Shown: positions 3,222-26,287, numbered from the stretch's first letter. The stretch: DNA of 64,000 nucleotides from a bacterium (GCA_016712675.1 JADJQR010000001.1:4077999-4141998); one strand, 5' to 3'. Notes: generated from the sequence alone by a model not told the origin. Made by a program: numbers and translations.

Positions 3222-3244
3222 CGCACACGACGCGCGAATTGCAG

Positions 3245-4673: not shown

Positions 4674-4696
4674 GCGGCGGATTGTCAGCTAACTCT

Positions 4697-4752: not shown

Positions 4753-4785
4753 GGAATAGAGGCGCGGGACCAGAATCTGAGAAGG

Positions 4786-4854
4786 ACGATCCATCCGCAT
4801 CCGACGTTGTCGGAGACGGTGTACGACGCGGCGCAGGGGTTGTTCAAGCCGTAG
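4786..4854 (+). repeat. Direct repeat (about 85% identity) of the lpd 3' terminus (3153-3221), including an in-frame stop codon
   Basis: It encodes IHPHPTLSETVYDAAQGLFKP*, against lpd ...IHPHPTLSETVYDAAQSLFKA*. This resembles a displaced old 3' end (attR-like) left by integration into the 3' end of a protein-coding gene. Confidence 0.75.
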
Positions 4855-5101
4855 GGCACACGAGCCGTTTCACAGGCGTCAACGTCTGGACAGCCTCCAC
4901 CCCGGGACCGTGCAGGCGCACCAGGTACGACCCGGAAGCGACCCGAGCGGCCGCGCAGGTCGTACACACACGGTCCCGCTAGACCCTATGGAGTGACCGG
5001 CCCCCTTGTCGTAACGTCGCCACTGTCGTTCAGGTGGTAGACGATGGCGGCCGGGTGGCAAGCACCGCAGTCGCGGGTTAGCGCCGAGGCGCCAGAGCCG
5101 C

Positions 5102-6213: not shown

Positions 6214-6474
6214 GCCTGAACCAGAACCCCGGGATCGGCGGTCGGAGACGGCGGATGAGAACAGGCACGATCCGGAGAACCCGCGTTATCGGTAAGCGAC
6301 TGGGCCGAACAGTCCAGACTCGCGATGCTAGACAGCGGTACCTCCCGACGGAGCACGGTCATGCGGCACGGCACCGGTGCGCCGGCGCAACCCGCGAATA
6401 TCAGAGTGACACGTCGTCGAAGCGTCCTGCCTCGTCCGCCCTCCCCGACCGTCGTGGCCTTGAACCGATAAGGG

Positions 6475-7799: not shown

Positions 7800-7990
7800 A
7801 CGTTGAATGCACCCCGATCCACCACCGGCATGCCGTTCCGACCCCGTGCGGCACCAATTCCACGCATTCACGCACACACGCCCCCATCCGCCGCACAGCC
7901 GAACCGGTGCACGAACGCAACGGCACCGAAGCGGGCGCCGCGGCCGGCAAGAAAGCCGCCGCCGCGGCATCCGCCGCGACGGCGTTCAGG
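7800..7990. mobile_element. Short degenerate remnant related to the IS91-family element (end-like and internal tnp-like segments)
   Basis: Nucleotide similarity to 22560-22620 and 23660-23710 of the complete IS91-family copy. Confidence 0.35.
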
Positions 7991-8021
7991 ACAAGGAGCT
8001 GCGCCGCGAGTCGTCCCGGCC

Positions 8022-8669
8022 TCAGGGACACTTCCTGCCGAGGGCGCGGTTCATCTCGACGATGTCGCTGAGATTCACACTGCCGTCCCGGATCAGATCG
8101 GAGCGAAAGGCATAGTGACCGACGAAATCAGCAGCGAAGCGGGCAACGTCCGACAAATCGACACGCAGGTTCCCGTCGATGTCCGGACTGTTGAACTTCA
8201 GGGCCAGCACGCCCGCCTGCACCCCGTGGCCGTTCACGTACACATGACACGGTGCCTGGCTGTGGCCGCCGGCGAGCAACGGCCGGGTCCACTCGGTGTG
8301 TCCGAGGGCGTCGGTTGCGTGGTCGGCCGTGCTGCCGCCGGCGCACAGGACCAGTCCTTCATCCTCGGCACCCAACCAGAGGTCTGCGGCCGGGACACCT
8401 TGCAGAGGACCGCTATCGTCGTTCGCCTGCAGATGAATCGTTGCGTCGACGATCTGGCCGAACGGGTTCCTCGCGGCGGTCAGGGGGTTGCCGGTGCCGT
8501 CGGGTACGACCAGCAGCGTGGCCGAATTGCCGGCGGCCAACCCCCAGGTGACCTGGTAGTACGGGCCTCCGACGCTCGCCGTCGCGGTGCCAGCCAGTGG
8601 GCCGGCCAGTCCGGCGAGCAGAAACAGCGTGCAAACCATGGACCTCGTGGAGATCATGGGTCCGATCAC
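8022..8669 (-). CDS. Secreted protein with C-terminal dockerin-like tandem Ca-binding repeats
   Basis: Signal peptide MISTRSMVCTLFLLAGLAGPLAG. The C-terminus DIDGNLRVDLSDVARFAADF...SDLIRDGSVNLSDIVEMNRAL fits two dockerin type-I-like D-x-D-G-x-x-x-V-D/N-x-S-D segments. Confidence 0.6.
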   Translation of the reverse strand: MIGPMISTRSMVCTLFLLAGLAGPLAGTATASVGGPYYQVTWGLAAGNSATLLVVPDGTGNPLTAARNPFGQIVDATIHLQANDDSGPLQGVPAADLWLGAEDEGLVLCAGGSTADHATDALGHTEWTRPLLAGGHSQAPCHVYVNGHGVQAGVLALKFNSPDIDGNLRVDLSDVARFAADFVGHYAFRSDLIRDGSVNLSDIVEMNRALGRKCP

Positions 8670-8689
8670 TTTCCAGGGGATTCGTCCGC

Positions 8690-9812
8690 AGTCGACTTTC
8701 AGGGGATGTACGGGTTCATCCTACCACATCGGCGCACCAAAGGCAACGCGGACGCCGTTTCCACCCCGAGCGGCGCCAATTCCCCGCGTTCACGGGCCCA
8801 TGCCCCCATCCACCGCTCTGCCGAGGCTACGGCCCATTCCGGTTCCGCTGTCAGGGGATCACTCCCAGCCGTCCGCCGCCGCCCCGCCGTCTGGTCCATC
8901 TCCGGCCAGTCGCCGGTGGCGATCGTCTGGTCGAACCCGAACTCCAGCTGCGGCGGCGATCGCGCCGGCAGCACTACGGGCGGCTGCGTGGGCAGTCGGC
9001 CTGCGGCCGACCGGCGGAAGCCGCTTGGGCACCGATGGCAACCACGCACGTTCGCCGATGACGCCGATGTGCTCGAGGATCCGCTCGACCTGCGGCTGGT
9101 CCAGCACGAACGCGATGTTGCGCATCAACTCACCGCATTTCGGGCATCTCAGGGGGAGGCATTCATAGATCCGCACCAGCAGCAGCGCCCAGCAGCGGGC
9201 CGCGGCGCGGCGCAGTTTCAACAGCGGCGATGACGGATCGGGCTCGGCCGGCTCGGCCGCCGGCAGCCCCATGCTCGCGCGCGCCTGCTCGAGCAGCTGA
9301 AGCGTCGCCCCCGCCGGCCCGGCCGATGCGGTCACCGCCTCGCGCAGCGCCGCAGTGGGCGCCAGCACGCCGCAGTAGCGAGGCTTGTGCAGTCGCGGCG
9401 AGGTCACCAACTGGGCCAGCAGGTCCAGCAGCTCGAGCGGGGTCAGCAACAGTTCGGTGCGGCCGTCGGCGGTCGGGCGGCGCAGGCTGTAGACCAGGGT
9501 CTGTTCGTTGAGGCGGCCCAGGCGCTCCTGGCTCAGCGGCGGCCGGGCGCAGTACCGCACCAGACGCTCGAGGCCCTGGCGGTCCCAGCCCGGGATCGTC
9601 ACCGAGGCGTCGACCGACCAGCCGCCGCCGTGTTCCAGGCTGTCCAGTACGTGAAGGGCATCGTCATCGAGGTGGCCGTGCCGGTGCAGCCAGCGCAGGC
9701 CGCGGTGGCGCATCTTGGCTTGAACCGCTTCGAAGTCATCTCGTTCCAGGTCGAGCGCCGGGTGAAAGACCGCCTCGTCGTCATCGCCGGCGCTGAACAC
9801 GCCGTCGGTCAC
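8690..9812 (-). mobile_element. 5'-truncated copy of the IS91-family element (3' end region plus the C-terminal 317 codons of the transposase)
   Basis: 8859-9812 encodes a polypeptide about 90% identical to residues about 215-470 of the full transposase at 22629-24221, including the zinc-knuckle LPLRCPKCGE. 8690-8858 resembles the element end at 22500-22690. Confidence 0.75.
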
Positions 9813-10090
9813 GCGACGTGCGGACCTGTGTTTCCATGTCAGCGGCGCCGGCGCGTTCGCGACGAGCGAGCGGGTGAACCTGTTCCTGGCCCGGGCGGAC
9901 AGGGTTTCGCTGTGCGGGCCGCTGACGTTGCTCCGTCGCTAGGTCGACCGCGGGCAAGAACCGACGGCCGCCACTGCCTGGCGCAGCGGCGGCCGTCTTG
10001 GTTCGCGAGGCGCGGGGAAACGGAGTCCCCTTGGTCGTCAGTCTACGCGATCTTCCGGAACCGTCGCCGGCCACGACGCCTCCGCGGCGT

Positions 10091-11341
10091 TCAGTTGACC
10101 GATTTCACCAGCCGGAAGCCGATGTTGTGGCCCGAATTTGCCGGCGGTTCGCCGCCGATTCTCGCGGCCGAGCGGCAGTACGCGGCACCGTCCACCCAGC
10201 TTCCCCCGCGGCGGATCCGAATCGTGCCGGAACTCGCCCCGACCGGATCGACGACGGTGTCCGTCCCGTAGGCCCCGTACCAGTCGTTGCAGAACTCCCA
10301 CATGTTGCCATGCATGTCGTAGAGCCCGGCGGCGTTGGCCGTCTTGCCGGCGCCGGCGTGCACGACACTGCTGGCGTTGCAGCTGAACCAGCCGACCGCG
10401 GCCAGATTCGGGTCCGTCGGGCTGCAGTTGGTGGACGTGATGGCGCCATTGCAGAACGCCGTCGTGCTTCCCGCCCGGCACGCGTATTCCCATTCGGCCT
10501 CGGTGGGCAGCCGATAGCCTCGCGCGTCATACGGGGCGCCCGCGTTGCACGACCACGTCACATGATCGTAGGCCGGGGTGCGTCCTTCGCGGAGGCTCAG
10601 CCAGTCGCAGTACGCCGCCGCCCCGTACCAGGTGGCCTCCTTCACGGGCAACGTCGGAGCTGTCGTGCTGAACTGGCCTGCGGCCGCGTTGTAGTCGATC
10701 GCACAGTCGCTGTCGTCCAGATCCAGCAGTTCGCGGGTCGAGCCCATGTTGTCCACGACGGACAAGGCGGTGGCCGTCACGTATCCCTGGTCCTTGGCCC
10801 ATTGGACCAGTTCCATGAACTGCTGGTTCGTGACTTCCGTCTCCTGGATGTCGAAGCCATGCGTGAGCTGCACCTCATGCTGAACCTCGTCCGACTGGCG
10901 TCCGAGTTCACCGGCGGGGCTGCCCATGGTGAAAGTCCCCGCATCCAGGCGCCGGAACCCGGCCGGGATGCTCCCGCAGCCGTCATCCGCATACACGCGC
11001 ACCACCAGCTGGTTGGACTCGACATAGCCGATATCGGCGCCCGCATCCCAGCGCGCCGTCCGCTGCGTGCCGGGCACGACCCCGGCTCCTGCCTCGCCGG
11101 AGACGGCGTCGCACTCGCCGTCGAACGACTGTCCACCATTGATGGAGTAGACGAGGGTGATGAAGAGCGGATCCCCGTCGGCATCCGCCACGTCGTACGT
11201 GATGTCAACGAGTCCGGTGTGCGCGACCGGCGCGGCCACGACGTTGGACACCACCGGCTGCGTGTTGGCGAGGACGCCCCCGGCCGCAAGCAGGGAGAGA
11301 ACCGTTGCTAGAGCGATCGTTCGCAGGCTCATGATCCACAC
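10091..11341 (-). CDS. Secreted FGE-sulfatase (SUMF1/formylglycine-generating enzyme) domain protein with an N-terminal Ig-like domain
   Basis: Signal peptide. FGE-domain motifs GYRLPTEAEWEYACRAGS, LYDMHGNMWEFCNDWY and RGGSWVDGAAYCRSAAR. Confidence 0.75.
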   Translation of the reverse strand: MWIMSLRTIALATVLSLLAAGGVLANTQPVVSNVVAAPVAHTGLVDITYDVADADGDPLFITLVYSINGGQSFDGECDAVSGEAGAGVVPGTQRTARWDAGADIGYVESNQLVVRVYADDGCGSIPAGFRRLDAGTFTMGSPAGELGRQSDEVQHEVQLTHGFDIQETEVTNQQFMELVQWAKDQGYVTATALSVVDNMGSTRELLDLDDSDCAIDYNAAAGQFSTTAPTLPVKEATWYGAAAYCDWLSLREGRTPAYDHVTWSCNAGAPYDARGYRLPTEAEWEYACRAGSTTAFCNGAITSTNCSPTDPNLAAVGWFSCNASSVVHAGAGKTANAAGLYDMHGNMWEFCNDWYGAYGTDTVVDPVGASSGTIRIRRGGSWVDGAAYCRSAARIGGEPPANSGHNIGFRLVKSVN

Positions 11342-11362
11342 TCCATTCCCGTGCCAGGGTTG

Positions 11363-14032
11363 CTACTTGACCAGTACTACGCGCTCGACGTCGGCGTCGC
11401 CGCGGTGCTCGAGCTTCACGAAGTACACACCCGAAGCCACGCGCTCGCCGCGCTCGTCGAGCCCATCCCAAGTCAGGCGATAGGTGCCCGGCGACTGGGC
11501 CTCGCTGAGCAGCAGCCGGACCATCCGGCCGGCGACGTCGTAGATGGCCAGCTTCAGGTTCGCCCCGTCGCTGGCCGAGTACGGGATCGTGATCGTCGGA
11601 TTGAAAGGATTGGGATACGGCGTGCCCAGGACCGCCGTGGCGCGCGCCATATCCCCGGTCCCGGCGACGATCTGCAGCGTGAACGGCAGCGAGTCGCCGG
11701 CCCCGATCCCGCTGAGGTCGATGGCGAAGACGACGGTGTCGCCGTAGGGCAACGCCGGCACGTCGGACTCGAAGTTCGCCGTGATCGTCCTGTCGGTGTT
11801 CATCACCACGGTCAGGGGATTGGTGTTCAAGCCCCCGGTATCGCCGGACCAGCCGGTCCATGTGTAACCGGTCGCGGGAATCGCCGTCAGCTGGACCGTG
11901 GTACCGGGCGCGTAGGCCGCGGATTCCGGCACCACCTGGACCTGGCCGCCAGAGACCGGCGACGCGCTCACCGACAGCACGAAGGACGTCGCGAGAGCGA
12001 AGGAAACGGCGATGGTGTGGTCCGCCGTGACATCGTCGAAGACATAGGTCGACTGCGGGGGCGCCGCGGCGCCGTCGACGGTGAGGCTCGCGATCGCGTA
12101 GCCGGGGTCGGGTGTCATGACGAAGACCTGATCCGAACCGTCGGCGACCGACACGGCGCCGCTCGGCTCAATGGAGCCGTTGGCGCCGGCGGTGGCGACG
12201 ATGGTGTGGGAGACCGCGGCGAAGGTGACGCTGATCGTGTGGTCCGTGGTGACGTTGTTGAACGTGTGGCTGGTCGCCGGCGCGAGGTTCGTGCCGTCGA
12301 TCACCAGCGTGGCGACCCCGTAGCCCGCGTCCGGCGTGATCGTGAAGCTGGCGTCCGTGCCGCGCAGAACATTGACGGCGCCGGACGGCGAGATCACGCC
12401 GTGCGGACCGGCGCTCGCGGTTATCGTCACCGTGGGATCCGCGGAGCATCCGTAGTGGGCGAACACCTGTTGCGTCGCCGAGGTGTTCCCCGATTCCGTG
12501 ATCAGGGCCGCCGCCAGTTCGTCGGCATTCTTCGGTTCGAAGCGCTTGATGACGTCATTGAAGAGCCGGTCGATCCCGAGAGACAGCCCATCCTGGGTCT
12601 CGCTGCCGGAGTCCATTGCGTCCCAGAGGATGCTGGCGAGCGAACCCTCGGTCACGCAACCGTCATCGGAGATGCCGTCGTTGAGGTAGAAGCTGTTCGT
12701 TTCGATGTCGCCGTTGCCATAACAGGGGTCCCACTGGTTGGCGGGACGCGAGTCGATGGCGCACGAGACGAACTCGGCCCACCCCTCGGTGAACGCGAAT
12801 TCGGGACAGGAGGCCATGGACGGCCAGTGGTAGTCGGACGGCACGGAGCCGCAGTCCGTCGGCTGCGTGTACGAACATGACGGCAGAGTGCCGTAGGCGC
12901 GACACTGGACATGGTGGCCGTATTCGTGATGGATCGGTTCTCGTGTCACGTCGTAGAAGGTCGCCAGCGGCAACTCGATGATGCTGGGGCACGTGTACCA
13001 GGGCCACGTGCCGGTGGGGAAGGTCACGTTGACGGCCGACAGGGACGTGCCCGTCTCTCCGTTGAAATAGCTCCAGGCGTCCTGCACCGCGCCCTGGATG
13101 GCAAAGGCCTGCCAGATCAACTCGGGTCCCATCTCACGGTCGATGTTGAGATCCGACAACACGATCATGCTGCCGGAATCTATCTGGTCGGTCTCGAAGG
13201 TGATCCAATACGGTGAGCCGCCCTCGGATTCGACCACAACGTGACGATTCGCGCTCGTGTTGCTGGTCGTGAACAGCATGATGCGTACGACGCAGGGAAA
13301 GACCTGATCCCAGGTCCCGGTTACGTACGAGCCGTCAGCCTGCAGGTCGCCGACGCTCCGGGTGGTCCAGGAACCGGAGCTGACCGGCCTCGTGGAGACC
13401 TCGACCTTGGCTCGCGGCAATCGCCGTTCCGCCACTGTGTCGTCATCGGGGAGGCGATCGTAGGTCGTCTTGGCGATGGTGACCTGGAAGGTCGACTTGC
13501 CGTCGCTCGGCTCCACGACGCCGTCCACGCGAATCGGTTGAGGTTCGCCCATGGTCTCCCGGTACCAGGCGAGATACTGTTCGGGCGTCGCCGCCCGCGG
13601 CTGTGGGCCGCGCAGGTCGAGGTATTGGCTGACCGACGATTCCATCGGGAAACCGCTGGCGCTCGAGCCGCTGAACCGCAGGACGAGGCGGGCGAAGGCC
13701 GACGGCGGCTCGTCGCACGAAGCGGAGAACTCCAGCGGCTCGCCGGCGGCCAGCAGCCCCTCCGGCGCGGTCGCGGGGGCGAGCCGACCGGACGGCCCCA
13801 GTTCGACCGACTTCAGTTGCATATCGGCCAGGGTGGTTCCCCGCCAGACCAGCTGGAGGCGAGGCGTGCCGGCATCGTCACGGCGCGCCTCGAACGAGCC
13901 GGTCACCAGCGGCTTCCTGAGGGCCGCGGATATGGCAGGTGGCGCGCCCGTCGCCTCGACCAGGATGGCGGCAAGCAGCGCGAGTCCCACTGCCAACAGC
14001 GAGCGGGTTTTCACAGGCCCGGGGTGTTTCAT
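11363..14032 (-). CDS. Secreted HExxH zinc metallopeptidase with tandem Ig-like repeats and a C-terminal FlgD-Ig/T9SS-like sorting domain
   Basis: Start at MKHPGPVKTRSLLAVGLALLAAILV (Met at 14032). HEYGHHVQ zinc-binding motif. Repeated ~90-aa modules (ISVTFAAVSHTIVATAGANGSIEPSG...). C-terminal NPFNPTITIPY...IYDVAGRMVRLL...WDGLDERGERVASGVYFVKL. Confidence 0.75.
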   Translation of the reverse strand: MKHPGPVKTRSLLAVGLALLAAILVEATGAPPAISAALRKPLVTGSFEARRDDAGTPRLQLVWRGTTLADMQLKSVELGPSGRLAPATAPEGLLAAGEPLEFSASCDEPPSAFARLVLRFSGSSASGFPMESSVSQYLDLRGPQPRAATPEQYLAWYRETMGEPQPIRVDGVVEPSDGKSTFQVTIAKTTYDRLPDDDTVAERRLPRAKVEVSTRPVSSGSWTTRSVGDLQADGSYVTGTWDQVFPCVVRIMLFTTSNTSANRHVVVESEGGSPYWITFETDQIDSGSMIVLSDLNIDREMGPELIWQAFAIQGAVQDAWSYFNGETGTSLSAVNVTFPTGTWPWYTCPSIIELPLATFYDVTREPIHHEYGHHVQCRAYGTLPSCSYTQPTDCGSVPSDYHWPSMASCPEFAFTEGWAEFVSCAIDSRPANQWDPCYGNGDIETNSFYLNDGISDDGCVTEGSLASILWDAMDSGSETQDGLSLGIDRLFNDVIKRFEPKNADELAAALITESGNTSATQQVFAHYGCSADPTVTITASAGPHGVISPSGAVNVLRGTDASFTITPDAGYGVATLVIDGTNLAPATSHTFNNVTTDHTISVTFAAVSHTIVATAGANGSIEPSGAVSVADGSDQVFVMTPDPGYAIASLTVDGAAAPPQSTYVFDDVTADHTIAVSFALATSFVLSVSASPVSGGQVQVVPESAAYAPGTTVQLTAIPATGYTWTGWSGDTGGLNTNPLTVVMNTDRTITANFESDVPALPYGDTVVFAIDLSGIGAGDSLPFTLQIVAGTGDMARATAVLGTPYPNPFNPTITIPYSASDGANLKLAIYDVAGRMVRLLLSEAQSPGTYRLTWDGLDERGERVASGVYFVKLEHRGDADVERVVLVK

Positions 14033-14747
14033 GTGATGCACTCTCCGGTAAGGGGGTTCTGGGCGCAGGCGGGTCTCCCGGCATGATTCGCGCGATGGCG
14101 TGTGAGAGGCCCGCTGGACGCGCCGCACGGCGACATCCAACAGCACGTGGCATGCCCGTCACGACGCGCAGAAGGCTGCGAGTCTGCGCTCCTGCAAGAT
14201 GCGTAACGGCAGCGATGTACGTGCGGGGAGCCCTTGCGAGCGGTGACGTGCGGGCATGGCGAGGCGGTTCGGCGACTCCGGTTGGCGGACCGGCGCGTAC
14301 GAATCCCGGACTGGTGCCTTGAAGGCGGTCCCGACCCTGGTCCACGAGCGGGCCCGGTTCACCGGCCGCGGCGGTCGAGCGGCAGAGCGTTGCGTCATGG
14401 GGAACCGCCGGAGCCGCATGGACGTGCGTCGGTAGGAACTGGCACGGCACGCCCACGCAATCCGCCGCCCGCTGTCGACAGTCATGTTCGTCGGCAGCGG
14501 CACCCTGGTGAGATCCTGCGGAGAACGGCTGCTCCACCGGCAGTCGCCGCAGGGAACGAGTTGCGTCTCCCGATGCCCCGAGTCACAGCCGAGACCAGCA
14601 AGATGCGGGTGGGATCGGCCCAGGGTTGGCGCAAGAGCCCTGCCCGTCGGCTATCAGACGGCGCGCAGCCGATTTCTGGTTTCAGCATCAACCCCAAGAC
14701 AATAGCGGGCAACTGCCATCGCCGTTGCCGATCGACAACCCTCGGCG

Positions 14748-15165
14748 GATAGGAGTTTCAACCCACCATTCCCCCTCGCCAAACCCTCGCGAGAGCCCTC
14801 CGACACTCCCTGAGTATCCCGCGCCGGAGCCCCTGAAGTCGATCGACCCGCCCCAATCCCCCACCCAGTCGCCGATCTCGCCCTGCACAGGGCCGATTCC
14901 GCCCCTTCGCGGACACACGCCCCCATCCGCCGCCCTGCCGAAGCCGCGGCCCGACACCGTTCGCCTGTCAGGGGATCACTCCCAGCCGTCCGCCGCCGCC
15001 CCGCCGTCTGGTCCATCTCCGGCCAGTCGCCGGTGGCGATCGTCTGGTCGAACCCGAACTCCAGCTGCGGCGGCGATCGCGCCGGCAGCACCGTCGGGGG
15101 CTGCGTCGGCTCGCCGATGTGCTCGAGGATGCGCTCGATCACCGGCCGGTCCAGCACGAACGCGG
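14748..15165 (-). mobile_element. IS91-family 3'-end remnant (tnp C-terminus with internal deletion plus the downstream element end)
   Basis: The ORF 14654-15157 begins MLDRPVIERILEHIG, matching FVLDRPVIERILEHIG of the full transposase. 14748-14975 aligns with 22440-22690. Confidence 0.6.
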
Positions 15166-15222
15166 AAAATGAACGTCATCTCGTTATACAATATGAACAT
15201 ATCGACAAGCAATAATATATTG

Positions 15223-15251
15223 TTGACATACGAGATTGTTGTGCCCATAAT
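15223..15251 (+). promoter_or_regulatory. Sigma70-like promoter: TTGACA, 17-bp spacer, CATAAT, in an AT-rich island upstream of the DUF2975 gene
   Basis: Hexamers and spacing read in the sequence. A GGAGG ribosome-binding site lies 6 nt before the ATG at 15289. Confidence 0.4.
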
Positions 15252-15288
15252 GGTCCCAGGCATTCCACCTCAATACGGAGGTCCCAAC

Positions 15289-15930
15289 ATGGCGAGCCTC
15301 TATTCCGGTCAGGGCGTTCGCTGGTTGCACCGTCTGCTCTCCCTGTCCTACTGCCTCGTCGTCATACTGGCGGTTGTGATGGCGGTCTGGTTGCTCGTGT
15401 CGCTGCCAGTGTGGTACCCCGACGCACCGCGTGTGCCGTTGCTGGGCATGGTCTTGGTGCCCGCCGCAGCATGGCCGACGCTCGCGACGGCACCCGCCGC
15501 CGGTGTCTCCGAACTCGAAATCGTCGAGGTGCATGGAATACTCAGGGCGCGTTTCGAGAACCCGTGGAACCATTGGGTGTTCCTGTTCATCTTCTCGCTG
15601 GGTGTGGGACTCTGCGCCGTGGTGCTGTTCCTGCTCCTGAAGATCGTGGGCAGCATCGCGGACAGAGACGTTTTCACCCGAGCCAATGCCCGGCGCCTGC
15701 GCTGGTTGGGGCTGGCGCTGGTGGTCGAGGCTGTGGCAAGCCCGGTCGCGGTCTACGCCATGTCACGCCTGGCCATCGACGGTGTGACGGTCGCGGGAGC
15801 GCCGTTCGCCGTCGACTGGAAATCCGAATTCGATTGGACCTCCTTCGTGGGCGCCTGGATTGTACTCATTCTCAGCGAGGTCTTCCGACAGGGCGCCGAC
15901 CTGCGAGACGACCAGTCTCTGACCGTGTGA
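15289..15930 (+). CDS. DUF2975-family membrane protein
   Basis: Four predicted transmembrane segments. It is in the typical pairing with a downstream small XRE HTH regulator (4-bp gap). Confidence 0.65.
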   Translation: MASLYSGQGVRWLHRLLSLSYCLVVILAVVMAVWLLVSLPVWYPDAPRVPLLGMVLVPAAAWPTLATAPAAGVSELEIVEVHGILRARFENPWNHWVFLFIFSLGVGLCAVVLFLLLKIVGSIADRDVFTRANARRLRWLGLALVVEAVASPVAVYAMSRLAIDGVTVAGAPFAVDWKSEFDWTSFVGAWIVLILSEVFRQGADLRDDQSLTV

Positions 15931-15939
15931 AGGAGCGCC

Positions 15940-16173
15940 ATGCCGATCCGGATCAATCTCGATCTGATGATGGTGCGGCGTGGGATCTCGTTGACCGAGC
16001 TGTCCGAGCGCGTCGGCATCACGATGGCCAACTTGTCGATCCTCAAGAACAACAGGGCCAGAGCCGTTCGCTTCTCGACGCTGGAAGCGCTGTGTCGAGA
16101 ACTGCACTGCCAGCCGGGGGAACTGCTGGAATTCGCACCCGGTGCGGCAGCAACTGACGGTCAGGAGATCTGA
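15940..16173 (+). CDS. XRE-family helix-turn-helix transcriptional regulator
   Basis: The sequence ISLTELSERVGITMANLSILKNNRARAVRFSTLEALCRELHCQPGELL matches the Cro/C1-type HTH. Confidence 0.75.
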   Translation: MPIRINLDLMMVRRGISLTELSERVGITMANLSILKNNRARAVRFSTLEALCRELHCQPGELLEFAPGAAATDGQEI

Positions 16174-16290
16174 CTCGCGAGTGCGGCGCCGGCTGTGCAT
16201 TCCTTGACCAAACATCATATTGGCCCTCCGCCTTGGTCAAGATCTCGTTACCAAGCGAATCAAACCCCAGCGCCGGACAGGAGAACGCCC

Positions 16291-16500
16291 ATGGACAGGT
16301 AGATCGGGTTGGATGCCCACACATCAAGCTGCGCGGTCGCCGTCGTCGGCCCCAGCGGCCGGCGACTCACCTCCCAGGTCGTCGAAACCAACGCCAGAGC
16401 TTTCGTCTCGGCCATCGAGGCGGGCAAGACCACCCTGCCAACGGCCGCTGCGAACACATCCTTCGCCTCCGGTCAGCGCATCAGGCTGATCTTCGTCATC
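16291..16500 (+). pseudogene. Possible N-terminal fragment of a second IS110-family transposase
   Basis: IGLDAHTSSCAVAVVGPSGRRLTSQVVETNARAFVSAIEA resembles the IS110 N-terminus (VGLDVHK..IAVAV). A stop codon lies upstream and there is no C-terminal domain. Confidence 0.3.
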
Positions 16501-17265
16501 TCTACCAGGCCGCCGAACTCAAGTCGCGCCAGGTAGCTGCCCGAGCCCATTTCCCTGCCGGTCGCATCCCGCCCGTCCCAGACCGCTTCGTGGCTGCCCT
16601 GGGGCCTGTTCTCGTCGACCAGTGTACGCACGAGTCGACCGGCCACATCAAACACCGTCAGGCGTACGGCTCCATCCGTCGGGATGGCGAACTGAATGGT
16701 CGTTCGCGGATTGAAGGGGTTCGGAATCCCGGAACGAAGCCGTAGAGCAGCCGCCGATTCCCTCGGAGGCACCGCACTGGCGCCTGTGAGCACCATTGCC
16801 TGCGTCTCCACAACTCGACCGATCACCGCTTGCAATTCCGCCGGGCAGGTGCCAGGCGCGCAGTCTACCCATTCGTACGGAATCCAATCCTCAACCATTT
16901 TGACGGGGCCGATATCTGGAACGTAGTAGACATGTCCGCGAATCGAGCCGGAAGCTGTCCCGACACTGTTCCCGCTTTCGTCTACCAACGGCCTGACACC
17001 CAGGTCTAGGTTGTACGCAACATCAACCGCATCCATGAAGACTCCAGCCATCGTCGACACGGTATCGGCTGTCGATACGACTGTGCTACTGAGGGTCCAA
17101 CCAGTGAGACTCGGCGAAACGGGAGTGGTAAGCGTGGCGCCCACCGCGAGATCCGCGCCAAGATACATCCAGATAACCTCGTCGAACTCCGCAGACCACA
17201 GAAAGATACTCGCTGCTGTCTTGAAGAAGATCCCGCCCGAAAGGAGCATCGGGCCGCACGGAAGT
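16473..17265 (-). pseudogene. C-terminal fragment of a secreted protein carrying the FlgD-Ig/T9SS-like sorting domain; the 5' part was lost at the junction with an IS91 fragment
   Basis: C-terminal NPFNPRTTIQFAIPTDGAVRLTVFDVAGRLVRTLVDE...WDGRDATGREMGSGSYLARL. There is no signal peptide, and the apparent N-terminus is IS91-derived sequence. Confidence 0.5.
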
Positions 17266-17760
17266 TCAGATCCGCATTGGCTCACCGCACTTCGGGCATC
17301 TCAGGGGAAGGCATTCGTAGATCCGCACCAGCAGCAGCGCCCAGCAGCGGGCCGCGGCGCGGCGCAGGTTCGTCAGCGGCGATGGCGCCTCAGGCTCGGC
17401 CGGCTTGGCGGGCGGCAGCCCCATGCTAGCTCGCGCCTGCTCGAGCAGCTGCAGCGTCGCTCCCGCCGGCCCGGCCGATGCGGTCACCGCCTCGCGCAGC
17501 GCCGCGTTCGGCGCCAGCACTCCGCAGTAGCGATGCTTGTGCAGGCGGGGCGGGGTCACCATCTGGGCCAGCAGGTCCAGCAGCTCGAGCGGGGTCAGCA
17601 GCAGTTCGGTGCGACCGTCGGCGATCGGGCGGCGCAGGCTGTAGACCAGGGTCTGTTCGTTGAGGCGGCCCGGGCGCTCCTGGCTCAGCGGCGGCCGGGC
17701 GCAGTACCGCACCAGACGCTCGAGGCCCTGGCGGTCCCAGCCCGGGATCGGAGCGCGCTG
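17266..17760 (-). mobile_element. Internal IS91-family transposase fragment (about 160 codons ending ...LPLRCPKCGEPMRI)
   Basis: High identity to residues about 280-440 of the transposase at 22629-24221. It is truncated at both ends. Confidence 0.7.
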
Positions 17761-18054
17761 TCGGACTGCCTCTGGGTCGACTGCGGGGCGATCACCACGG
17801 TGACGTTCGCCGACGCCGCGCTCGAGCAGGCCGTGCGCTCGCACGTGCACAAGCCGGCGGGCGGCCTGACCACCACCGACGTGGACACGCTGCACCACCT
17901 GGTGGCGCCGGCGCTGGGGATCGTGTCGCTGGAGGGCCTGCAGGCCTGCGCGTCGCTGCTGACGGCGCGGCTGCGGGGCAACGCCATCGTCGACCTTGGG
18001 CCACTGCATGAACTGGTGAACCTGGGCGACCTCTACCTGAACAACAACGAGGTC
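17750..18054 (+). pseudogene. Leucine-rich-repeat protein gene, upstream fragment (interrupted by IS3 at 18055)
   Basis: LxxLxLxxNxIxDLxPL periodicity (LTARLRGNAIVDLGPLHELVNLGDLYLNNNEV). The reading frame continues exactly across the IS at 19364. Confidence 0.45.
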
Positions 18055-18104
18055 TGAACCGCCCCGGGATTGCCGGAGACTCCATTCTTTGAGAGGATGG
18101 GGTA

Positions 18105-19333
<1,229 letters not shown>

Positions 19334-19363
19334 CGGAGGCTCCGGAAAAGTCGGGGCGGTTCA

Positions 19364-19520
19364 GTCAGCGACCTGCAGCCGCTGGTTGGGGCACCGACGC
19401 TGCACCAGCTGCATCTGATCGGCAACCCGCTGTCGGCGGCGGCGGTGTCGGTGCAGATTCCGGCGCTGGAGGGGCGGGGGGTGGTGGTGATCCGGAACGG
19501 TCTTCGCGCTACCGCAAGAT
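19364..19520 (+). pseudogene. Leucine-rich-repeat gene, downstream fragment after the IS3 insertion
   Basis: VSDLQPLVGAPTLHQLHLIGNPLSAAAVSVQIPALEGRG continues the LRR frame. Its 3' extent is uncertain because it overlaps the convergent amidase gene. Confidence 0.4.
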
Positions 19521-21518
19521 GGCCAACTTGCGCACCGCGACACGGGGCCCGACCCGCAGACGTGCGACGTACATGCCGGACGCCACCGCGGCGCCGTTCT
19601 GATCGCGCATGTTCCACTGCACCTCGCAATGGCCACCGGAGCCGGGCACCCGCCTCTGCATCAGACGCTTCCCGGAGATATCGTAGACTTCGAAGATGGG
19701 TTCGGTTGCCACGTCTGCCGGGTAGCTCGCCTGAAGAATCATCTGACCAGCGGCGGTGATGTATTCCAGGCGAACGTTCTCTTCGGCGTCCACCGAATCC
19801 TGGGGAACTGCCGTCGCGGACTGCGTCATTCGCCCCACCAGCCGAAACGGACCGCAACTGCCCGACTCGCCGTCGACCACCAGATAATGCAACCCCGACC
19901 GCTCGAAGACATGGAAGATATCGGTCGGTCCTCGGCTGTCCTCCTGCTGACCGGCACAAGCGACTGCGGCGTTCGCGGCGCATCCTTCCAGCAAGTACAG
20001 GGACGCTCCCCAGTCTGCATCGACGTGAGCGGTCAACGTGTCTCCGGCCGCCGGTCGCAGTTCGTACACCACATCCGGACCGCCCAGATCGGTGCTGCCG
20101 CACCACTCGGCGATGGCGCTACCGTCGCTCAGGTCGTCCGTTGCGTAGCAGTTCACGCCGTCGACATCGAACGAGCCGAAGAGTCGCGACGCGCTCTCGC
20201 AGCGGTCATTAGCAGCCGGACCCGTCGGCTCGTAGGCGCCTAATGCCACCTCGTCGATCATGAAGTCGGCCCCGTCCGCCCCCGTCACGCGGAATGCCAG
20301 CTCGACCGTCGCGCCCGCCCAATCTCCCAGGCCGACCGCTCGTTCACGAAAAATGAACGGGTCAGCCATCGGCTCATCCAGCGAGAGCGACCATAGCGTC
20401 GTCCATTCGACGTCGCCGACATTGCGGACACCCAGTGAAGCGTCCACGGCGTGAGCCCAGATTCGACTTCCGGCCCATTTGAAGCGCACGGCCGACAGAT
20501 CGCCAGAGGGCACGATCGGGGGCGAAATCAACCACGCGTCGGCGGCTTGCGGCGAACCGCCCCCGACCCACGCAGCCGCCACGCCATCACTGGCATGGCC
20601 GGGCAACGTCACGCGCTCCCATGTGGGAGATCCCGCGCCACCGGCCGTCAGCACGCTCCAACCAGCAGGCGGGAATGCGGTCTCCTCGAAGCTCTCGCCA
20701 AGTGCCGACTCGGTGATCGGCGCCTCCCCGGCCTTCGCCACCGACGCAGGATCCGTGTCTATCACGGGGACGCGCACACGCCCGGACAGCGTCGGCTCAA
20801 GGCAATAGGAAATTCCGACAGCAATGCCATCGGCAATGAGGGCCTGGTCGCCATCCGTGCTGATGTTGCGGAACTGGCATTCGTTGGAGATGAAGCAGAC
20901 TTCGACCAGCAGCGCGAGGTTTTTCGTGCGCTTCAACACGGCGAAGTTGCCGGCCTTTGTGCCCCTGTCCGCGCTGCAGAACAGGAACGCCAGATTCGCG
21001 TATGACATCAACGCCGACTGGACCTGGTTCGCCGCGCTTTGGGCTTCAACGGATTCGATCTTCTTCTTGGCGTAGTATCTGGTCGCCGGATACCACGTCT
21101 CCGTTCCTCGTGCTACAGCGTTAGTGGACGAGTTCATATGCACGCTCAGGAGCATCTGTGAGGTGCTTTGCATGCCGAGATCGTTCGGCAACTCGCCGTT
21201 CGCGATCAACGCGCGTTGTCTGGGCGTGAAATACGTGGTGTCGCTGTTCTGGGTTTTCGCCACGATGTAGCCCAAACCCGTCAAGGCGCCGTCCAGATAG
21301 TAGGCCACGCCGGAATTGAGATCCATCTCGTTCGGTGCGGCGGCTCCGTCATGACCAAGAGCCCCCGGATCGTGCCCGCCATGTCCAGGGTCAATCCACA
21401 CGTCGATTTGAGCTGAGGCGCCGTCTATTCCGCAAGTCAGGACGAACCCGGCCAGAGCCAGTGACAGCACGCTCCATCCGGAATGCCGTCGTCTTGATGC
21501 GAACCCATCCGCCCTCAT
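19509..21518 (-). CDS. Secreted N-acetylmuramoyl-L-alanine amidase (Amidase_3) domain protein with a large central domain of unknown function and a C-terminal FlgD-Ig/T9SS-like sorting domain
   Basis: Signal peptide after the Met at 21518. Amidase_3 motifs IDPGHGGHDPGA and ALLVEVCFISNE. C-terminus VYDISGKRLMQRRVPG...WNMRDQNGAAVASGMYVARL. Confidence 0.7.
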   Translation of the reverse strand: MRADGFASRRRHSGWSVLSLALAGFVLTCGIDGASAQIDVWIDPGHGGHDPGALGHDGAAAPNEMDLNSGVAYYLDGALTGLGYIVAKTQNSDTTYFTPRQRALIANGELPNDLGMQSTSQMLLSVHMNSSTNAVARGTETWYPATRYYAKKKIESVEAQSAANQVQSALMSYANLAFLFCSADRGTKAGNFAVLKRTKNLALLVEVCFISNECQFRNISTDGDQALIADGIAVGISYCLEPTLSGRVRVPVIDTDPASVAKAGEAPITESALGESFEETAFPPAGWSVLTAGGAGSPTWERVTLPGHASDGVAAAWVGGGSPQAADAWLISPPIVPSGDLSAVRFKWAGSRIWAHAVDASLGVRNVGDVEWTTLWSLSLDEPMADPFIFRERAVGLGDWAGATVELAFRVTGADGADFMIDEVALGAYEPTGPAANDRCESASRLFGSFDVDGVNCYATDDLSDGSAIAEWCGSTDLGGPDVVYELRPAAGDTLTAHVDADWGASLYLLEGCAANAAVACAGQQEDSRGPTDIFHVFERSGLHYLVVDGESGSCGPFRLVGRMTQSATAVPQDSVDAEENVRLEYITAAGQMILQASYPADVATEPIFEVYDISGKRLMQRRVPGSGGHCEVQWNMRDQNGAAVASGMYVARLRVGPRVAVRKLAILR

Positions 21519-21569
21519 GGTGCCATCCCCCGATTCATGCCGCCGGAGCCTCGCGCGCAATGTTTGAGT

Positions 21570-22433
21570 CTAGTGTCTCTCGCCGTCCGCGTCGGGAGCC
21601 GCGACCTCGCACAGCCTCGCTTCCGGCGAGCCAAAACGCACTCCGTCCCAATGATGCCGACAATAGGTGACGGCGCTGTCCGACACCCAGCGCGGATCTG
21701 ACAGCCCCGCGTGGTTGTCGGCGACGACCCGCCGGGACTTCCGCTCGTCCACGTCGAAGATCCAGATCTCCGAAGCCACCGGCTCTTCAGTGGCAGGGTC
21801 GATCGCGGCGTGTCGCACGAAAGCCAGCAGTTGGCCACGGGGGCTCCAGGCGAGGTCGTAGTCCGCCAGTGCCGCTGACGTGTCGCTGAACGCGACCCGT
21901 CCTTCGGGAACGACGACGATGTTCAGCATGGCGACCGGTCGTCCGTAGGCGGCCCCCGTTACCGCGACCAGCCGGGAGTCCGGCGACCACTCCGTTCGCG
22001 ACGTGCTGGCACCAAGGTTCGATTCGATGATGAGCCGCCGTTCGGCGACATCCACCACGCCGAGATCGCCGAATCGCCGGGCAGACTTCCAGAGGACACA
22101 GGCGAGGTGCGCGCCATCGGGAGACCACCGGGGAAGGGATGCCACGTCGCCGATGAGCGGCTTAGGCGGATCCAGCCGGTCCGTGGCGATCCACAAGCGC
22201 GGTCGCATGTGTTCGTCCGTCCGAACCATGACCACCGTCGAATCGGGGCCCTGGGCGACGTTGGCGTCCCGTGTCCAGCCGTCGTCAACCTCCGCCTCGT
22301 CGCACGACCGGCTCGTGGCGTCCATGACGGGTGCGCGCGAAGGCGATTCCGGTGGCGCGCCCGCACAACCCGTGCTGGAGGCCAGCACGACCATGGCGAT
22401 GACACCGGCAAGCGCGCTGAAGCCAAGAGTCAC
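21570..22433 (-). CDS. Lipoprotein with PD40/WD40-like (TolB-type) beta-propeller repeats
   Basis: Lipobox LASSTGC. Repeated WSPDGAHLA / WSPDSRLVA / WSPRGQLLAF blades. Confidence 0.65.
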   Translation of the reverse strand: MTLGFSALAGVIAMVVLASSTGCAGAPPESPSRAPVMDATSRSCDEAEVDDGWTRDANVAQGPDSTVVMVRTDEHMRPRLWIATDRLDPPKPLIGDVASLPRWSPDGAHLACVLWKSARRFGDLGVVDVAERRLIIESNLGASTSRTEWSPDSRLVAVTGAAYGRPVAMLNIVVVPEGRVAFSDTSAALADYDLAWSPRGQLLAFVRHAAIDPATEEPVASEIWIFDVDERKSRRVVADNHAGLSDPRWVSDSAVTYCRHHWDGVRFGSPEARLCEVAAPDADGERH

Positions 22434-22628
22434 TTCTCGATCATCTTCGCGGATAGGAGTTTCAACCCACCATTCCCATCGCCAAACCCTCGCGAGAGCC
22501 CTCCGACACCTCGTGAGTATCCCGCACCGGAGCCCCGGAAGTCAACCCGCCCGCCCCGCTCCCCCACCCAGGCGCCGATCTCGCCCTACACAGCGCCGAT
22601 TCCGCCCCTTCGCGGACACACGCCCCCA

Positions 22629-24221
22629 TCAACCGCCCTGCTGAGGCTGCGGCCGCGCCGATTCGCCTGGTAGGGGATCACTCCCAGCCGTCCGCCCCCC
22701 GCCCCGCCGTCTGGTCCATCTCCGGCCAGTCGTCGGTCGCAGGCTCTCTGGTCGAACCCGAACTCCAGCTGCGGCGGCGACCGCGCCGGCAGCACCGTCG
22801 GGGGCTGCGTCGGCAGTCGGCCTGCGGCCGACCGGCGGAAGCCGCTTCGGCTCCGATGGCAACCACGCACGTCCGCCGATGACGCCGATGTGCTCGAGGA
22901 TGCGCTCGATCACCGGTCGATCCAGTACGAACGCGAAGATCCGCATCGGCTCACCGCACTTCGGGCACCTCAGGGGAAGGCATTCGTAGATCCGCACCAG
23001 CAGCAGCGCCCAGCAGCGGGCCGCGGCGCGGCGCAGGTTCGCCAGCGGCGACGGCGCATCGGGCTCGACCGGGCTGGCCGCCGGCAACCCCATGCTCGCA
23101 CGCGCCTGCTCGAGAAGCTGCAGCGTCGCTCCCGCCGGCCCGGCCGAGGCCGTCACCGCCTCACGCAGCGCTGCGTTGGGCGCCAGCACGCCGCAGTAGC
23201 GGTGCTTGTGCAGGCGGGGCGGAGTCACCAGCTGGGCCAGCAAGTCCAGCAGCTCGATCGGCGTCAGCAGCAGCTCGTGGCGGCCGTCGGCCGTCGGGCG
23301 GCGCAGGCTGTAGACCAAGGTCTGCTCGTTGAGGCGGCCCAGCCGCTCCTGGCTCAACGGCGGCCGGGCGCAGTACCGCACCAGCCGCTCGAGGCCCTGC
23401 CGGTCCCAGCCCGGTATCGTCACCGAGGCGTCGACCGACCAGCCGCCGGCGTGGTCGCTGCTGTCGAGGACATGAAGGGCGTCGTCATCGAGGTGGCCGT
23501 GGCGGTGCAGCCAGCGCAGGCCGCGCTGGCGCATCTTCGCTTGAACCGCTTCGAAGTCCCCCGGTTCCAGGTCAAGCGCGGGGTGGAACACGGCCGCGCC
23601 GTCATCGCCGGCGCTGAACACGCCGTCGGTCACCAGCACGTGGAAATGGACGTGGCTGTTGAGGTAGCTGCCGAAACGGTGCACGAACGCCACGGCACCG
23701 AAGCGGGCGCCCGGCGGCGCGCCGAGGCTGCGCTGGCGCAGGGTGGTCTCGACGGCGCGCAGGAAGATCGCGAGCAGGCCGCTGATCACCTCGGGCTTAT
23801 TGCGCAGATGCCATCTCACCCGCTTGGGCACCGACAGCACCCACTGGCGGTGCTGCACGCGCGGCAGCACCTGGTCGACCATGTGCGATGAGACTTCCAC
23901 CATGCGCCGCGTCGCGCACGACGGGCACAGGTCGCGGCCCTTGCAGGAGAAGGCGACCAGGAAGTCACGGCGGCAGTTGCCGCAGTATACCCGGGCAAAC
24001 CCGTGGGCCAGGATGCCGCACCTCAGGTAATTGCGCAGGGCGGCCTCGACGTGCAGCGGAGCGCCGCGGCCGTACTCGTCGCGCTCGGCTGCCGTCGCCA
24101 GCCAGGTCTCCAGATGGGTGCGTACCAACTCGTGCAGCAGAGTGGCCGCCGGGCGTCGCGGGCGGTAGGCGCGCGGGGCGGGAACTGTCGCCGGCTGGTG
24201 ACACGTCGCTGCTGCGGGCAC
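22629..24221 (-). CDS. IS91-family transposase (HUH Y2 rolling-circle transposase)
   Basis: N-terminal zinc-binding CGNCRRDFLVAFSCKGRDLCPSC, HUH motif HVHFHVLV, and C-terminal LPLRCPKCGEPMRI, as in IS91/IS801/IS1294 transposases. Confidence 0.85.
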   Translation of the reverse strand: MPAAATCHQPATVPAPRAYRPRRPAATLLHELVRTHLETWLATAAERDEYGRGAPLHVEAALRNYLRCGILAHGFARVYCGNCRRDFLVAFSCKGRDLCPSCATRRMVEVSSHMVDQVLPRVQHRQWVLSVPKRVRWHLRNKPEVISGLLAIFLRAVETTLRQRSLGAPPGARFGAVAFVHRFGSYLNSHVHFHVLVTDGVFSAGDDGAAVFHPALDLEPGDFEAVQAKMRQRGLRWLHRHGHLDDDALHVLDSSDHAGGWSVDASVTIPGWDRQGLERLVRYCARPPLSQERLGRLNEQTLVYSLRRPTADGRHELLLTPIELLDLLAQLVTPPRLHKHRYCGVLAPNAALREAVTASAGPAGATLQLLEQARASMGLPAASPVEPDAPSPLANLRRAAARCWALLLVRIYECLPLRCPKCGEPMRIFAFVLDRPVIERILEHIGVIGGRAWLPSEPKRLPPVGRRPTADAAPDGAAGAVAAAAGVRVRPESLRPTTGRRWTRRRGGGRTAGSDPLPGESARPQPQQGG

Positions 24222-24272
24222 GCGCGCTCCCGGGCGCCTTGCGGCGGCGGGAGGCGGTAGGGCCGGCGGCGG

Positions 24273-24286
24273 TTGCGCCGGCGCAA
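24273..24286. repeat. 14-bp palindrome TTGCGCCGGCGCAA, between the IS91 copy and abiEi
   Basis: Exact match. Extended context GGTTGCGCCGGCGCAAGTTTCGGC resembles the copy at 45797. Confidence 0.8.
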
Positions 24287-24478
24287 GTTTCGGCCATCAC
24301 GGCGGCTGCGTCGGACAAGGCCAAACGGACCGTGCAAGCAACAAGCCACGCACTGTCGACCGGACCCGACCGGCATGGAGCCTGCGCCGAACTCGAGTTC
24401 TCTCTTGCAAGTCTCCCTAAATGTGTCTAAATAGTGAACGAACATATCTAACGTTCGCTATTTAAACACAGGTGAGGC

Positions 24479-25971: not shown

Positions 25972-26287
25972 GATGGTTGGACCAGAGATTCGTGAGGGAG
26001 TTGCCGTGAACGAGCAGACACGCCACATCCTCGAGGTCAAGCGCGCGCAGCCTGGAGTTGAGCAGGACCATGTTGCGCCGGCCTGCATCGCACCGCGGCG
26101 GTGGCACGAAGTCCGCCTGATCCGTCCGGGACTTGCAACGGGCAAGGGAGTCGGCTCCGTGACGGCGCTGCCGGCGCGGGCCGCTGCCCCGCGACGATGC
26201 CAAAACATACACATACAATAGCCTTGACGAGTTCATAATATACCTATATTTTATTCAAACAAGAAACGCCCAGGAGCGGAGGAAATC

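Follow-up and report, generated by a model that had tools for sequence, protein, structure and literature searches.

The stretch of 64,000 nt analysed here (GCA_016712675.1, JADJQR010000001.1:4077999-4141998; hereafter the window, in whose coordinates all positions are given) carries one copy with both ends, and several fragments, of an insertion sequence (IS) of the IS91 superfamily, apparently an undescribed ISCR-like element, lying among intact and truncated genes within a compositional island. The source genome is probably that of Candidatus Krumholzibacteriia/Krumholzibacteria, since a related locus labelled Krumholzibacteriia (L002) is approximately 90% identical to the window over 3.9 kb, flank included, and since 34 of the 42 related loci, which were taken from one-genome-per-species contigs, come from metagenome-assembled genomes (MAGs) labelled Krumholzibacteria (Candidatus Krumholzibacteria, -iia or -ota) or unclassified 'bacterium', the other eight bearing labels of other phyla. 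The Krumholzibacteria are an under-studied phylum known almost only from MAGs.

When the complete copy (E) was compared with the window by self-BLAST, four matches with E-values from 1e-11 to 0 were obtained, at 8773-9812 (88.3% identity, 1043 nt), 14745-15164 (90%), 17268-17750 (91.5%) and 7898-7944 (93.6%), and a weak extra match joined 7854-7903 to the 3' untranslated part of other copies. Every match was plus-to-plus, so that all copies are co-oriented, with the transposase gene on the minus strand. Within the 64 kb, BLAST with the full copy, and of the entire window against itself, gave no further DNA matches, and a protein-level search with four related transposases revealed no further IS91-like remnants. 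An earlier reading made from the sequence alone (the sequence-only reading) had proposed one complete and at least four truncated IS91-type copies in a single orientation. The repeats and their orientation are borne out by the Pfam domains of the transposase and by the four co-oriented matches, the positions it gave were right to within about 10-80 nt, and neither differing orientations nor unrelated ends, on which it would have given up the proposal, were found. The count comes out lower. In reference (ref) coordinates, which are those of the gapped alignment of each piece to copy E, fragment C stops at 22935 and fragment D begins at 22937; with breakpoints 1 nt apart, C and D are halves of one copy (C+D), and there are therefore four copies and not five.

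The piece formerly placed at about 7800-7990 is indeed IS-derived, but proves to be a two-part relic (copy A) composed of 7812-7902 (approximately ref 22554-22644), which is 72-82% identical to C and B, and 7898-7944 (ref 23670-23718), which is 94% identical to E. Copy B keeps 317 codons open despite 12% divergence. The two halves of C+D are separated by a 2.1-kb insert holding a strong sigma-70-like promoter (15223-15251), a DUF2975 membrane-protein gene (15289-15930, plus strand), a small helix-turn-helix gene (15940-16173, plus strand) and a 5'-truncated gene fragment with a FlgD_ig tail (16473-17267, minus strand); a transposon is ruled out for this insert, which has neither terminal inverted nor terminal direct repeats. 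That copies abut truncated genes, namely a leucine-rich repeat (LRR) gene and the FlgD_ig-tail gene fragment, had been recognised correctly before. The plus-strand LRR gene (17751-18054 and 19368-~19510) is itself cleanly interrupted by an intact IS3-family element, of which the sequence-only reading made no mention. Coordinates are collected in Table 1.

Table 1. Features of the IS cluster and its surroundings, in window coordinates
Feature	Position	Strand	Basis or remarks
Copy E, sole copy with both ends	22449-24288	-	IS proper 22449-24272, 16-nt palindrome 24273-24288; boundaries from multi-copy alignments, the 5' one from 8 loci that differ in their upstream flanks
Transposase gene of copy E, 530 aa	22629-24221	-	Zn-binding domain, HUH motif HVHFH, single-Tyr motif RYCARPP; C-terminal tail apparently remodelled
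oriIS terminus GGTGGGTTGAAACTCCTATCCGC (sense strand)	22449-22471	-	conserved in relatives; fits 3' termini of ISCR1, ISVsa3/ISCR2 and the Thiodictyon element
68-nt insertion in transposase tail of E	22815-22882	-	gapped alignments of copies and relatives
Sub-terminal 5' hairpin CTCCCGCCGCCGCAAGGCGCCCGGGAG, probable terIS palindrome	24227-24253	-	alignments of 5' ends
REP-like palindrome GTTGCGCCGGCGCAAG adjoining 5' (terIS-side) end of E	24273-24288	.	
Palindrome copies	3245-3260, 3280-3295, 6377-6392, 24273-24288, 26131-26146 (decayed), 28997-29012, 45799-45814, 46035-46050, 50954-50969, 52710-52725		
Copy C, oriIS-proximal half of C+D	14745-15164	-	ref 22449-22935; oriIS terminus intact, without 68-nt insertion
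Copy D, internal half of C+D	17268-17750	-	ref 22937-23419; 5' side cut at plus-strand LRR gene fragment
Insert splitting C+D, 2103 bp	15165-17267	.	gapped alignment of C and D to E
Copy B	8754-9820	-	ref ~22574-23642; without oriIS and terIS; has 68-nt insertion
Copy A, two-piece relic, ~130 bp	7812-7944	-	
Intact IS3-family element	18055-19364	+	orfA 18105-18425, orfB 18422-19333; 40-bp imperfect inverted repeats, 3-bp GTC target duplication
Compositional island, ~24 kb	3300-27700	.	gene GC3 and GC; contains every IS copy

Transposase and ends of the element

The transposase of copy E matches Zn_Tnp_IS91 (PF14319) with 59.4 bits (cut-off 26.3) and Y2_Tnp (PF04986) with 110.3 bits (cut-off 20.9). 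Its best NCBIfam match is ISCR_clade_Ia (NF052416), at 242 bits against a cut-off of 925, which leaves it outside that clade, and the IS91 equivalog (NF033538) gives 110.6 bits, under the cut-off of 125. Amino acid identity is about 30% to the transposases of ISCR1 and ISVsa3 (ISCR2) and 48% to a Thiodictyon protein. When the protein is aligned with those of ISCR1 and ISVsa3, the HUH motif shows no variation, and RYCARPP has proline at Y+4, as in ISCR1 (RYISRPA), the second catalytic tyrosine of IS91 being absent. IS91 needs two catalytic tyrosines, Y249 and Y253 (Y-x3-Y) (PMC5714925), and in IS91, IS801 and IS1294 a CTTG/GTTC target tetranucleotide (with T at position 2) abutting oriIS is defining and essential (PMC13181058). 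No CTTG/GTTC consensus was found beside oriIS in 22 copies, in which the flanks are GAAG, CGAG, CGGC, AAAC, TATT, ACCT etc. Since the equivalog cut-off is missed, only one tyrosine is present and the tetranucleotide is lacking, the element falls outside the IS91 family in the narrow sense and, judged from its sequence, is an unnamed ISCR-like member of the IS91 superfamily; the former assignment to IS91 holds at the superfamily level and fails at that of the family sensu stricto.

The element would span 22449 to 24272/24288, or ~1.77 kb without the 68-nt insertion. On the 3' side, copies whose flanks are unrelated remain alike as far as ...GGTTGAAACTCCTATCCGC, a terminus located at 22449 in E and at 14745 in C; the identity of E and C ends at ...CCTATCCGC, and the flanks are unrelated in 20 or more copies. 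The 3' termini of ISCR1 (GGTGGTTTATACTTCCTATACCC), ISVsa3/ISCR2 (GGGCGTTTATTCTTCCTATACG) and the Thiodictyon element (GCGGTTGGATTTCCTATCCCC), which were read directly from annotated plasmid records, each lie ~200-230 nt past the stop codon, and the match to them identifies the low-coordinate end as an ISCR-type oriIS. On the 5' side, nine copies with unrelated upstream flanks begin to be similar exactly at the palindrome CTTGCGCCGGCGCAA(G/C) (24273-24288 in E), and a CCTCCC...GGGAG hairpin is kept family-wide ~20-30 nt upstream of the start codon. The two termini, each defined from multiple copies, are unrelated to each other and without terminal inverted repeats. Their respective ori and ter roles are inferred from position and from the similarity to ISCR oriIS. 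Copy E is flanked by ...GAAA/palindrome on the 5' side and by GAAG... on the 3' side, with no clear direct repeat that would mark a target-site duplication. The alignment of copies that had been recommended as a check thus defines both the oriIS-side and the terIS-side end, and shows no GTTC/CTTG at oriIS flanks or at truncation junctions.

The gene at 22629-24221 had been described as a full-length transposase. Both ends of copy E, the first 446 codons and the catalytic core are indeed intact, but the 68-nt insertion, combined with two small indels (a gain of 2 nt and a loss of 1 nt), puts the conserved C-terminal tail (...HIGEPTQPPTVLPARSPPQLEFGFDQ...WPEMDQTAG..GWE, which distant relatives, L005 and L006 among them, keep intact) out of frame. 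Because the inserted 68 nt encode ...EPKRLPPVGRRP, which resembles the conserved EP..LP.R.PP motif, the tail would appear to be remodelled rather than destroyed. The insertion is common to E and B only (8994-9061 in B, 95.6% identical) and is absent from C, from L001, from L002, which shares the flank of E, and from all other relatives covering the site; the condition of C is the ancestral one. This distribution conflicts with the phylogeny of the copies and suggests gene conversion between E and B, 13 kb apart. A dispersed mini-element is ruled out, as the 68 nt have no other match in the window or in the 42 related loci.

Internally deleted forms are found in other genomes. In L028, L030, L033 and L039 (also L034 and L035) and in L010, the first 50-110 nt of the 5' end are joined to the terminal ~570-590 nt of the reference copy, a segment that begins at about ref 23000-23035 and runs to oriIS, and L030 and L039 occur with the full-length L003 in one MAG, Loclat_bin-10883. 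As they keep both ends, these derivatives look like candidates for non-autonomous elements resembling miniature inverted-repeat transposable elements (MITEs). On the same contig as L010 (JFJP01011113.1), L055 has two co-oriented degenerate copies 7.2 kb apart and, 3 kb further on, a palindrome doublet joined to an 83-nt IS 5' fragment; this locus is not syntenic with the window.

A REP-like palindrome beside the 5' end

The 16-nt palindrome CTTGCGCCGGCGCAAG that adjoins the 5' end of copy E occurs in nine near-perfect copies in the 64 kb, against 0.04 expected from shuffles. Eight of the nine lie away from any IS, and seven of these eight are situated between open reading frames (ORFs), mostly after convergent stop codons. 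Dispersed, mostly intergenic, with doublets and with unrelated flanks, the palindrome has the distribution of a repetitive extragenic palindromic (REP)-like sequence. Loci of 8-14 kb from other Krumholzibacteria do not contain it, and no gene for a REP-associated tyrosine transposase (RAYT/TnpA-REP) was seen among the window ORFs scanned.

All E-type copies with an intact 5' end (9/9) adjoin the palindrome. In a distant variant of the IS (L006, L016) similarity starts right after the position of the E-type palindrome, which places the palindrome just outside the family-wide end of the IS. Composite palindrome units also exist without an IS: the doublet at 3245/3280 of the window has the same linker as a doublet in L010, and a unit at 1508/1600 of L003 agrees in its left arm and its spacing with the unit at 2840/2928 of that locus. 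In both L010 and L003, the IS begins exactly at the edge of the second palindrome. The most economical reading of these arrangements would be that the IS lineage inserts beside pre-existing REP-like palindromes; alternatively, the palindrome may be part of the mobile unit, or may act as a terminator.

A coupling of the lineage to a lineage-specific REP-like palindrome, with the HUH transposase taking the REP hairpin as its insertion site or the palindromes serving as alternative terminators, is put forward here tentatively, as a possibility that we hold somewhat short of an even chance. If it is real, the IS91/ISCR superfamily would thereby gain its first REP-directed member, and Y2-type rolling-circle IS would be linked to REP biology, which to our knowledge has so far been confined to Y1 RAYTs, and the tie would bear on the target choice of HUH enzymes and on the ISCR-type pick-up of neighbouring genes. 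With alternative terminators, genes between the IS and the next palindrome would be mobilisable, one example being the palindrome-AbiE-palindrome-IS block considered in the next section.

The solo palindromes were also considered as hidden 5' relics of the IS, a view that was rejected, since only the one at 28997 beats shuffles and does so marginally against real-sequence controls. To the right of that palindrome, in the opposite orientation to the cluster, lies a possible highly diverged IS 5'-end relic (28997-~29150, plus strand), whose score of 54 was reached by 0/200 shuffles and 3/500 real-sequence controls. It overlaps the 3' end of a well-supported gene and may be a chance match.

Origin of the copies and of the genes between them

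Pairwise distances between the copies amount to 8-12%, and in a neighbour-joining tree they interleave with copies from other MAGs. The dN/dS ratio is 0.15 for E-D, 0.17-0.18 for E-B and 0.33 for B-D, B and D being each other's closest relatives at 8.4%. Low dN/dS at such distances indicates that the divergence accrued mostly under purifying selection in separate active lineages, and not by decay in place of the products of one master copy. The copies would accordingly have to be seen as independent insertions from diverged lineages that still encoded a selected transposase. For C+D, the N-terminus of the LRR gene was sought beyond oriIS of C (14159-14744) and not found, the region translating to nonsense; since the 5' part of the gene is missing there, a later deletion that took it together with the 5' side of C+D is the simplest reading. 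Insertion into the LRR gene of a C+D copy truncated beforehand was ruled out on the absence of the LRR N-terminus from the same interval.

All four copies lie within an island in which gene GC3 is 0.81, against 0.91 outside 3.3-27.7 kb (Mann-Whitney p = 5e-7), and GC is 66.2% against 70.4%. The atypical GC and codon usage that the sequence-only reading had proposed to look for in the intervening genes is thus present. The IS copies themselves have the composition of the island, and the low-GC3 segment reaches past the IS cluster on both sides. The chance that four copies all fall within the 24-kb island is about p = 0.02, and that of four copies in one orientation p = 0.125, so that clustering exceeds chance only modestly. 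Accumulation in dispensable DNA is the default explanation for it, and the clean insertion of the IS3-family element into the LRR gene, with its GTC duplication, indicates that the region tolerates insertions. Co-orientation is either chance or a result of the replication-linked orientation bias that has been reported for the IS91 family (PMC3971601).

We therefore regard the region as probably an ordinary IS graveyard, made up of old, independent insertions in an accessory island and of deletion damage after insertion. The low-GC3 island would have taken up four separate minus-strand insertions of the ISCR-like element, which arrived from lineages already 8-12% apart and later suffered damage where they lay. 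On the model of IS91, transposition would begin at oriIS, continue by strand displacement through the transposase gene and stop at the 5' hairpin. Subsequently C+D would have lost its 5' third along with the start of the adjoining LRR gene and been split by 2.1 kb of unrelated DNA, B would have lost both ends, A would have been reduced to a 130-bp relic, and E, retaining both ends, would have had its C-terminal tail rewritten by the 68-nt insertion and small indels.

Several observations weigh against this account. The 2.1-kb insert entered C+D with at most 1 nt of the IS lost, for which the account has no mechanism to offer. C+D keeps oriIS and lacks the terIS side, as do L017, L021, L026 and the second copy of L055, and this is the shape expected of abortive rolling-circle copying. 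The 5' breakpoints of foreign copies cluster at ref 23267-23502, although the survey of foreign truncated copies was seeded by the HKHRYCGV motif just downstream of that interval, and the clustering may be an artefact of detection; an oriIS-anchored metagenome scan gave only 15 matches, mostly cut by contig ends, with too few uncut copies for a length distribution. The presence of several co-oriented degenerate copies within 11 kb in L055 hints at a systematic cause of clustering (tblastx of L055 against the window was uninformative in this GC-rich DNA). Finally, no orthologous pre-insertion sequence was found, and the order of events is a reconstruction.

A systematic cause could be targeting, that is, insertion beside REP-like palindromes and/or an orientation fixed by replication, which would let copies of one orientation gather where palindromes occur in dispensable DNA and so produce both the clustering and the co-orientation. 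It would account for the palindrome at every intact 5' end of E-type copies and for the position of the IS in L010 and L003 at the border of a composite unit, a kind of unit found without an IS as well, and it fits the documented orientation bias of the IS91 family (PMC3971601) as well as the similar co-oriented cluster in L055. As an explanation of the cluster we nevertheless judge it unlikely: the palindromes are spread across the whole window (about one per 8 kb) and not concentrated in the cluster, a symmetric palindrome alone cannot set orientation, A, B and C+D have lost their 5' ends so that their targets are unreadable, and the noise in the GC skew of the window is too great for the replichore to be assigned.

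The sequence-only reading had taken the partial copies for by-products of one-ended transposition that misses terIS, and the genes between them for cargo brought in by such events. Faulty rolling-circle transposition, by read-through of terIS or by premature termination, has precedents. In the IS91 family, terIS is read through in 1-14% of events, a share that rises to as much as ~50% when Orf121 is absent, and upstream DNA is mobilised (PMC13181058), and Helitrons yield premature truncations at the termination end, as shown experimentally (PMC4778049). It would suit the shape of C+D and of the several foreign copies that have oriIS and not the terIS side, and the insert in C+D ends in GTTC beside IS sequence. 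However, when terIS is missed in one-ended transposition of IS91 or IS1294, the product is the IS plus upstream DNA and is longer, not shorter (PMC13181058), and A and B, two of the three partial copies, are without oriIS, at which rolling-circle transposition has to begin. The 8-12% divergence under purifying selection points to different source elements, no shared tetranucleotide, CTTG/GTTC included, was found at truncation junctions or oriIS flanks, the 5' half of the LRR gene is missing and not displaced, and the foreign survey is biased by its HKHRYCGV seed. An internal surrogate terminator was ruled out, as the 5' breakpoints in 12 loci are distinct and have no common tetranucleotide.

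With regard to the intervening genes, the AbiEi/AbiEii toxin-antitoxin operon is the sole module directly upstream of an intact terIS. The window and L002 share the IS, the spacer, AbiE and the distal palindrome, in a palindrome-AbiEii-AbiEi-palindrome-IS block whose similarity ends ~20 nt beyond the distal palindrome, and this shared block would fit read-through to a surrogate terminator and plain orthology equally well. The operon is a compact cassette that recurs, at 80-90% DNA identity over its length and at 80-86% in loci L061-L066, in at least three other unrelated contexts. Homology is confined there to window 24398/24420-25971; on one side it stops with the AbiEii stop codon, on the other ~60-80 nt before AbiEi. 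In these contexts no transposase was called beside the operon and no palindrome was present in the locus. Since the cassette is found elsewhere without the IS, it moves independently of it, and capture of terIS-adjacent DNA, a trait of ISCR elements, finds no support here, the block in L002 being explicable by orthology. L064, in which synteny with the window covers AbiE and the DUF4143 ATPase, was considered as a precise empty site and rejected, since the 439 nt upstream show no relation to the window. As the island also exceeds the IS cluster on both sides, the view that the IS carried in the intervening genes is not supported, and we consider it improbable that faulty rolling-circle transposition made the partial copies or mobilised these genes.

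That local segmental duplication gave rise to all the copies from one ancestral insertion, with the paralogues decaying in place, is very improbable. Co-orientation and clustering, the closeness of B and D (8.4%, dN/dS 0.33), the 68-nt insertion common to E and B, and the fact that on the oriIS side A and B cease to match the IS at points no more than ~20 nt apart would all suit it. However, no DNA similarity exists between any flanks, dN/dS of 0.15-0.18 cannot be reconciled with dead duplicates that decay neutrally, and the copies of L001 and L002 nest among those of the window. A and B as duplicates of one junction were ruled out, their flanks scoring at shuffle level, and so were the neighbouring genes as segmental duplicates, which have only their FlgD_ig tail domains in common (26-37% amino acid identity).

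The gene content of the island includes secreted-protein genes with FlgD_ig/Por_Secre_tail sorting domains, an FGE-sulfatase-domain protein, an amidase and toxin-antitoxin genes. No tRNA genes were found at the island borders (3.3 and 27.7 kb), where they were looked for. An 80-nt direct repeat (87.5%) at 3151-3230 and 4784-4863, which duplicates the 3' end of the gene at 1812-3221, flanks a 1.5-kb segment with a palindrome doublet and an AAA_14/DUF4143 ATPase gene (3429-4688), and resembles the att repeats of a small integrated element; the opposite island edge has another DUF4143 ATPase (26288-27679), which is only 24% identical to the first. Weak DNA repeats (59-73% identity) at 16554-16724, 29785-29952 and 42289-42459, the first of which covers the FlgD_ig tail of the fragment at 16473, appear to represent a common C-terminal domain, and internal repeats of the same identity range occur at 42631-44407 within a large ORF (42208-44592). 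In the search for an orthologous locus, exact look-ups with two window proteins gave no match, and the gene beside oriIS of copy E, a TolB-like propeller, is without a close orthologue, its next-best match being 38% identical.

Relation to known elements

Degraded IS clusters are routine in accessory islands, and the clustering itself matters little; nor does the rolling-circle origin proposed for the fragments hold. What is new is that the ends, the subgroup and the non-autonomous derivatives of an undescribed ISCR-like element in Krumholzibacteria have been defined, in a clade that departs from the classical IS91 rules in its single tyrosine and in having no CTTG/GTTC beside oriIS. The association with the REP-like palindrome is the sole part with real potential for novelty. 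For ISCR1 and ISCR2, which are clinically important, no transposition has been demonstrated (PMC6218425).

The element has in common with ISCR1 and ISCR2/ISVsa3 a Zn-binding N-terminus, the HUH motif and a single tyrosine in R-Y-x-x-R-P, an oriIS terminus ~180-230 nt past the stop codon with the pattern GGTT.A...TCCTAT.C, and two distinct ends without terminal inverted repeats, and its best NCBIfam match is an ISCR clade model. It differs in being only about 30% identical to them at the amino acid level (242 against 925 bits for the clade model), in the tail motif WPEMDQTAG..W[DE], which is specific to its clade, and in its 5' end next to a host REP-like palindrome. ISCR1 and ISCR2 belong to Proteobacteria, whereas this element resides in a Krumholzibacteria-like host, without resistance genes or integron context. 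With IS91, IS801 and IS1294 it shares the Y2_Tnp and Zn_Tnp_IS91 domains, asymmetric oriIS and terIS ends and a sub-terminal palindrome on the terIS side (PMC13181058), but it has neither the second catalytic tyrosine, nor CTTG/GTTC at oriIS, nor orf121, and its score lies under the equivalog cut-off.

The proper parallel to the sequence-only proposal is offered by Helitrons, which can leave copies with the initiation end and without the termination end (PMC4778049), and C+D and several foreign copies are so shaped. Here, in contrast, nothing indicates that the truncated copies arrived in that form: the initiation end is missing from two of them, and one of the truncations goes together with the loss of neighbouring host sequence. 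A parallel to the situation at the 5' end is offered by IS that target REP sequences or bacterial interspersed mosaic elements (BIMEs), in which the end of the IS likewise directly borders a dispersed intergenic palindrome and composite units are found with and without the IS. Established REP-targeting has been described mainly for IS of the DDE type. In a survey of such IS, only one of seven IS91 copies in one Shigella genome was located at a REP (PMC1525189), while the element described here, an HUH element, has the palindrome at all nine of its intact 5' ends.

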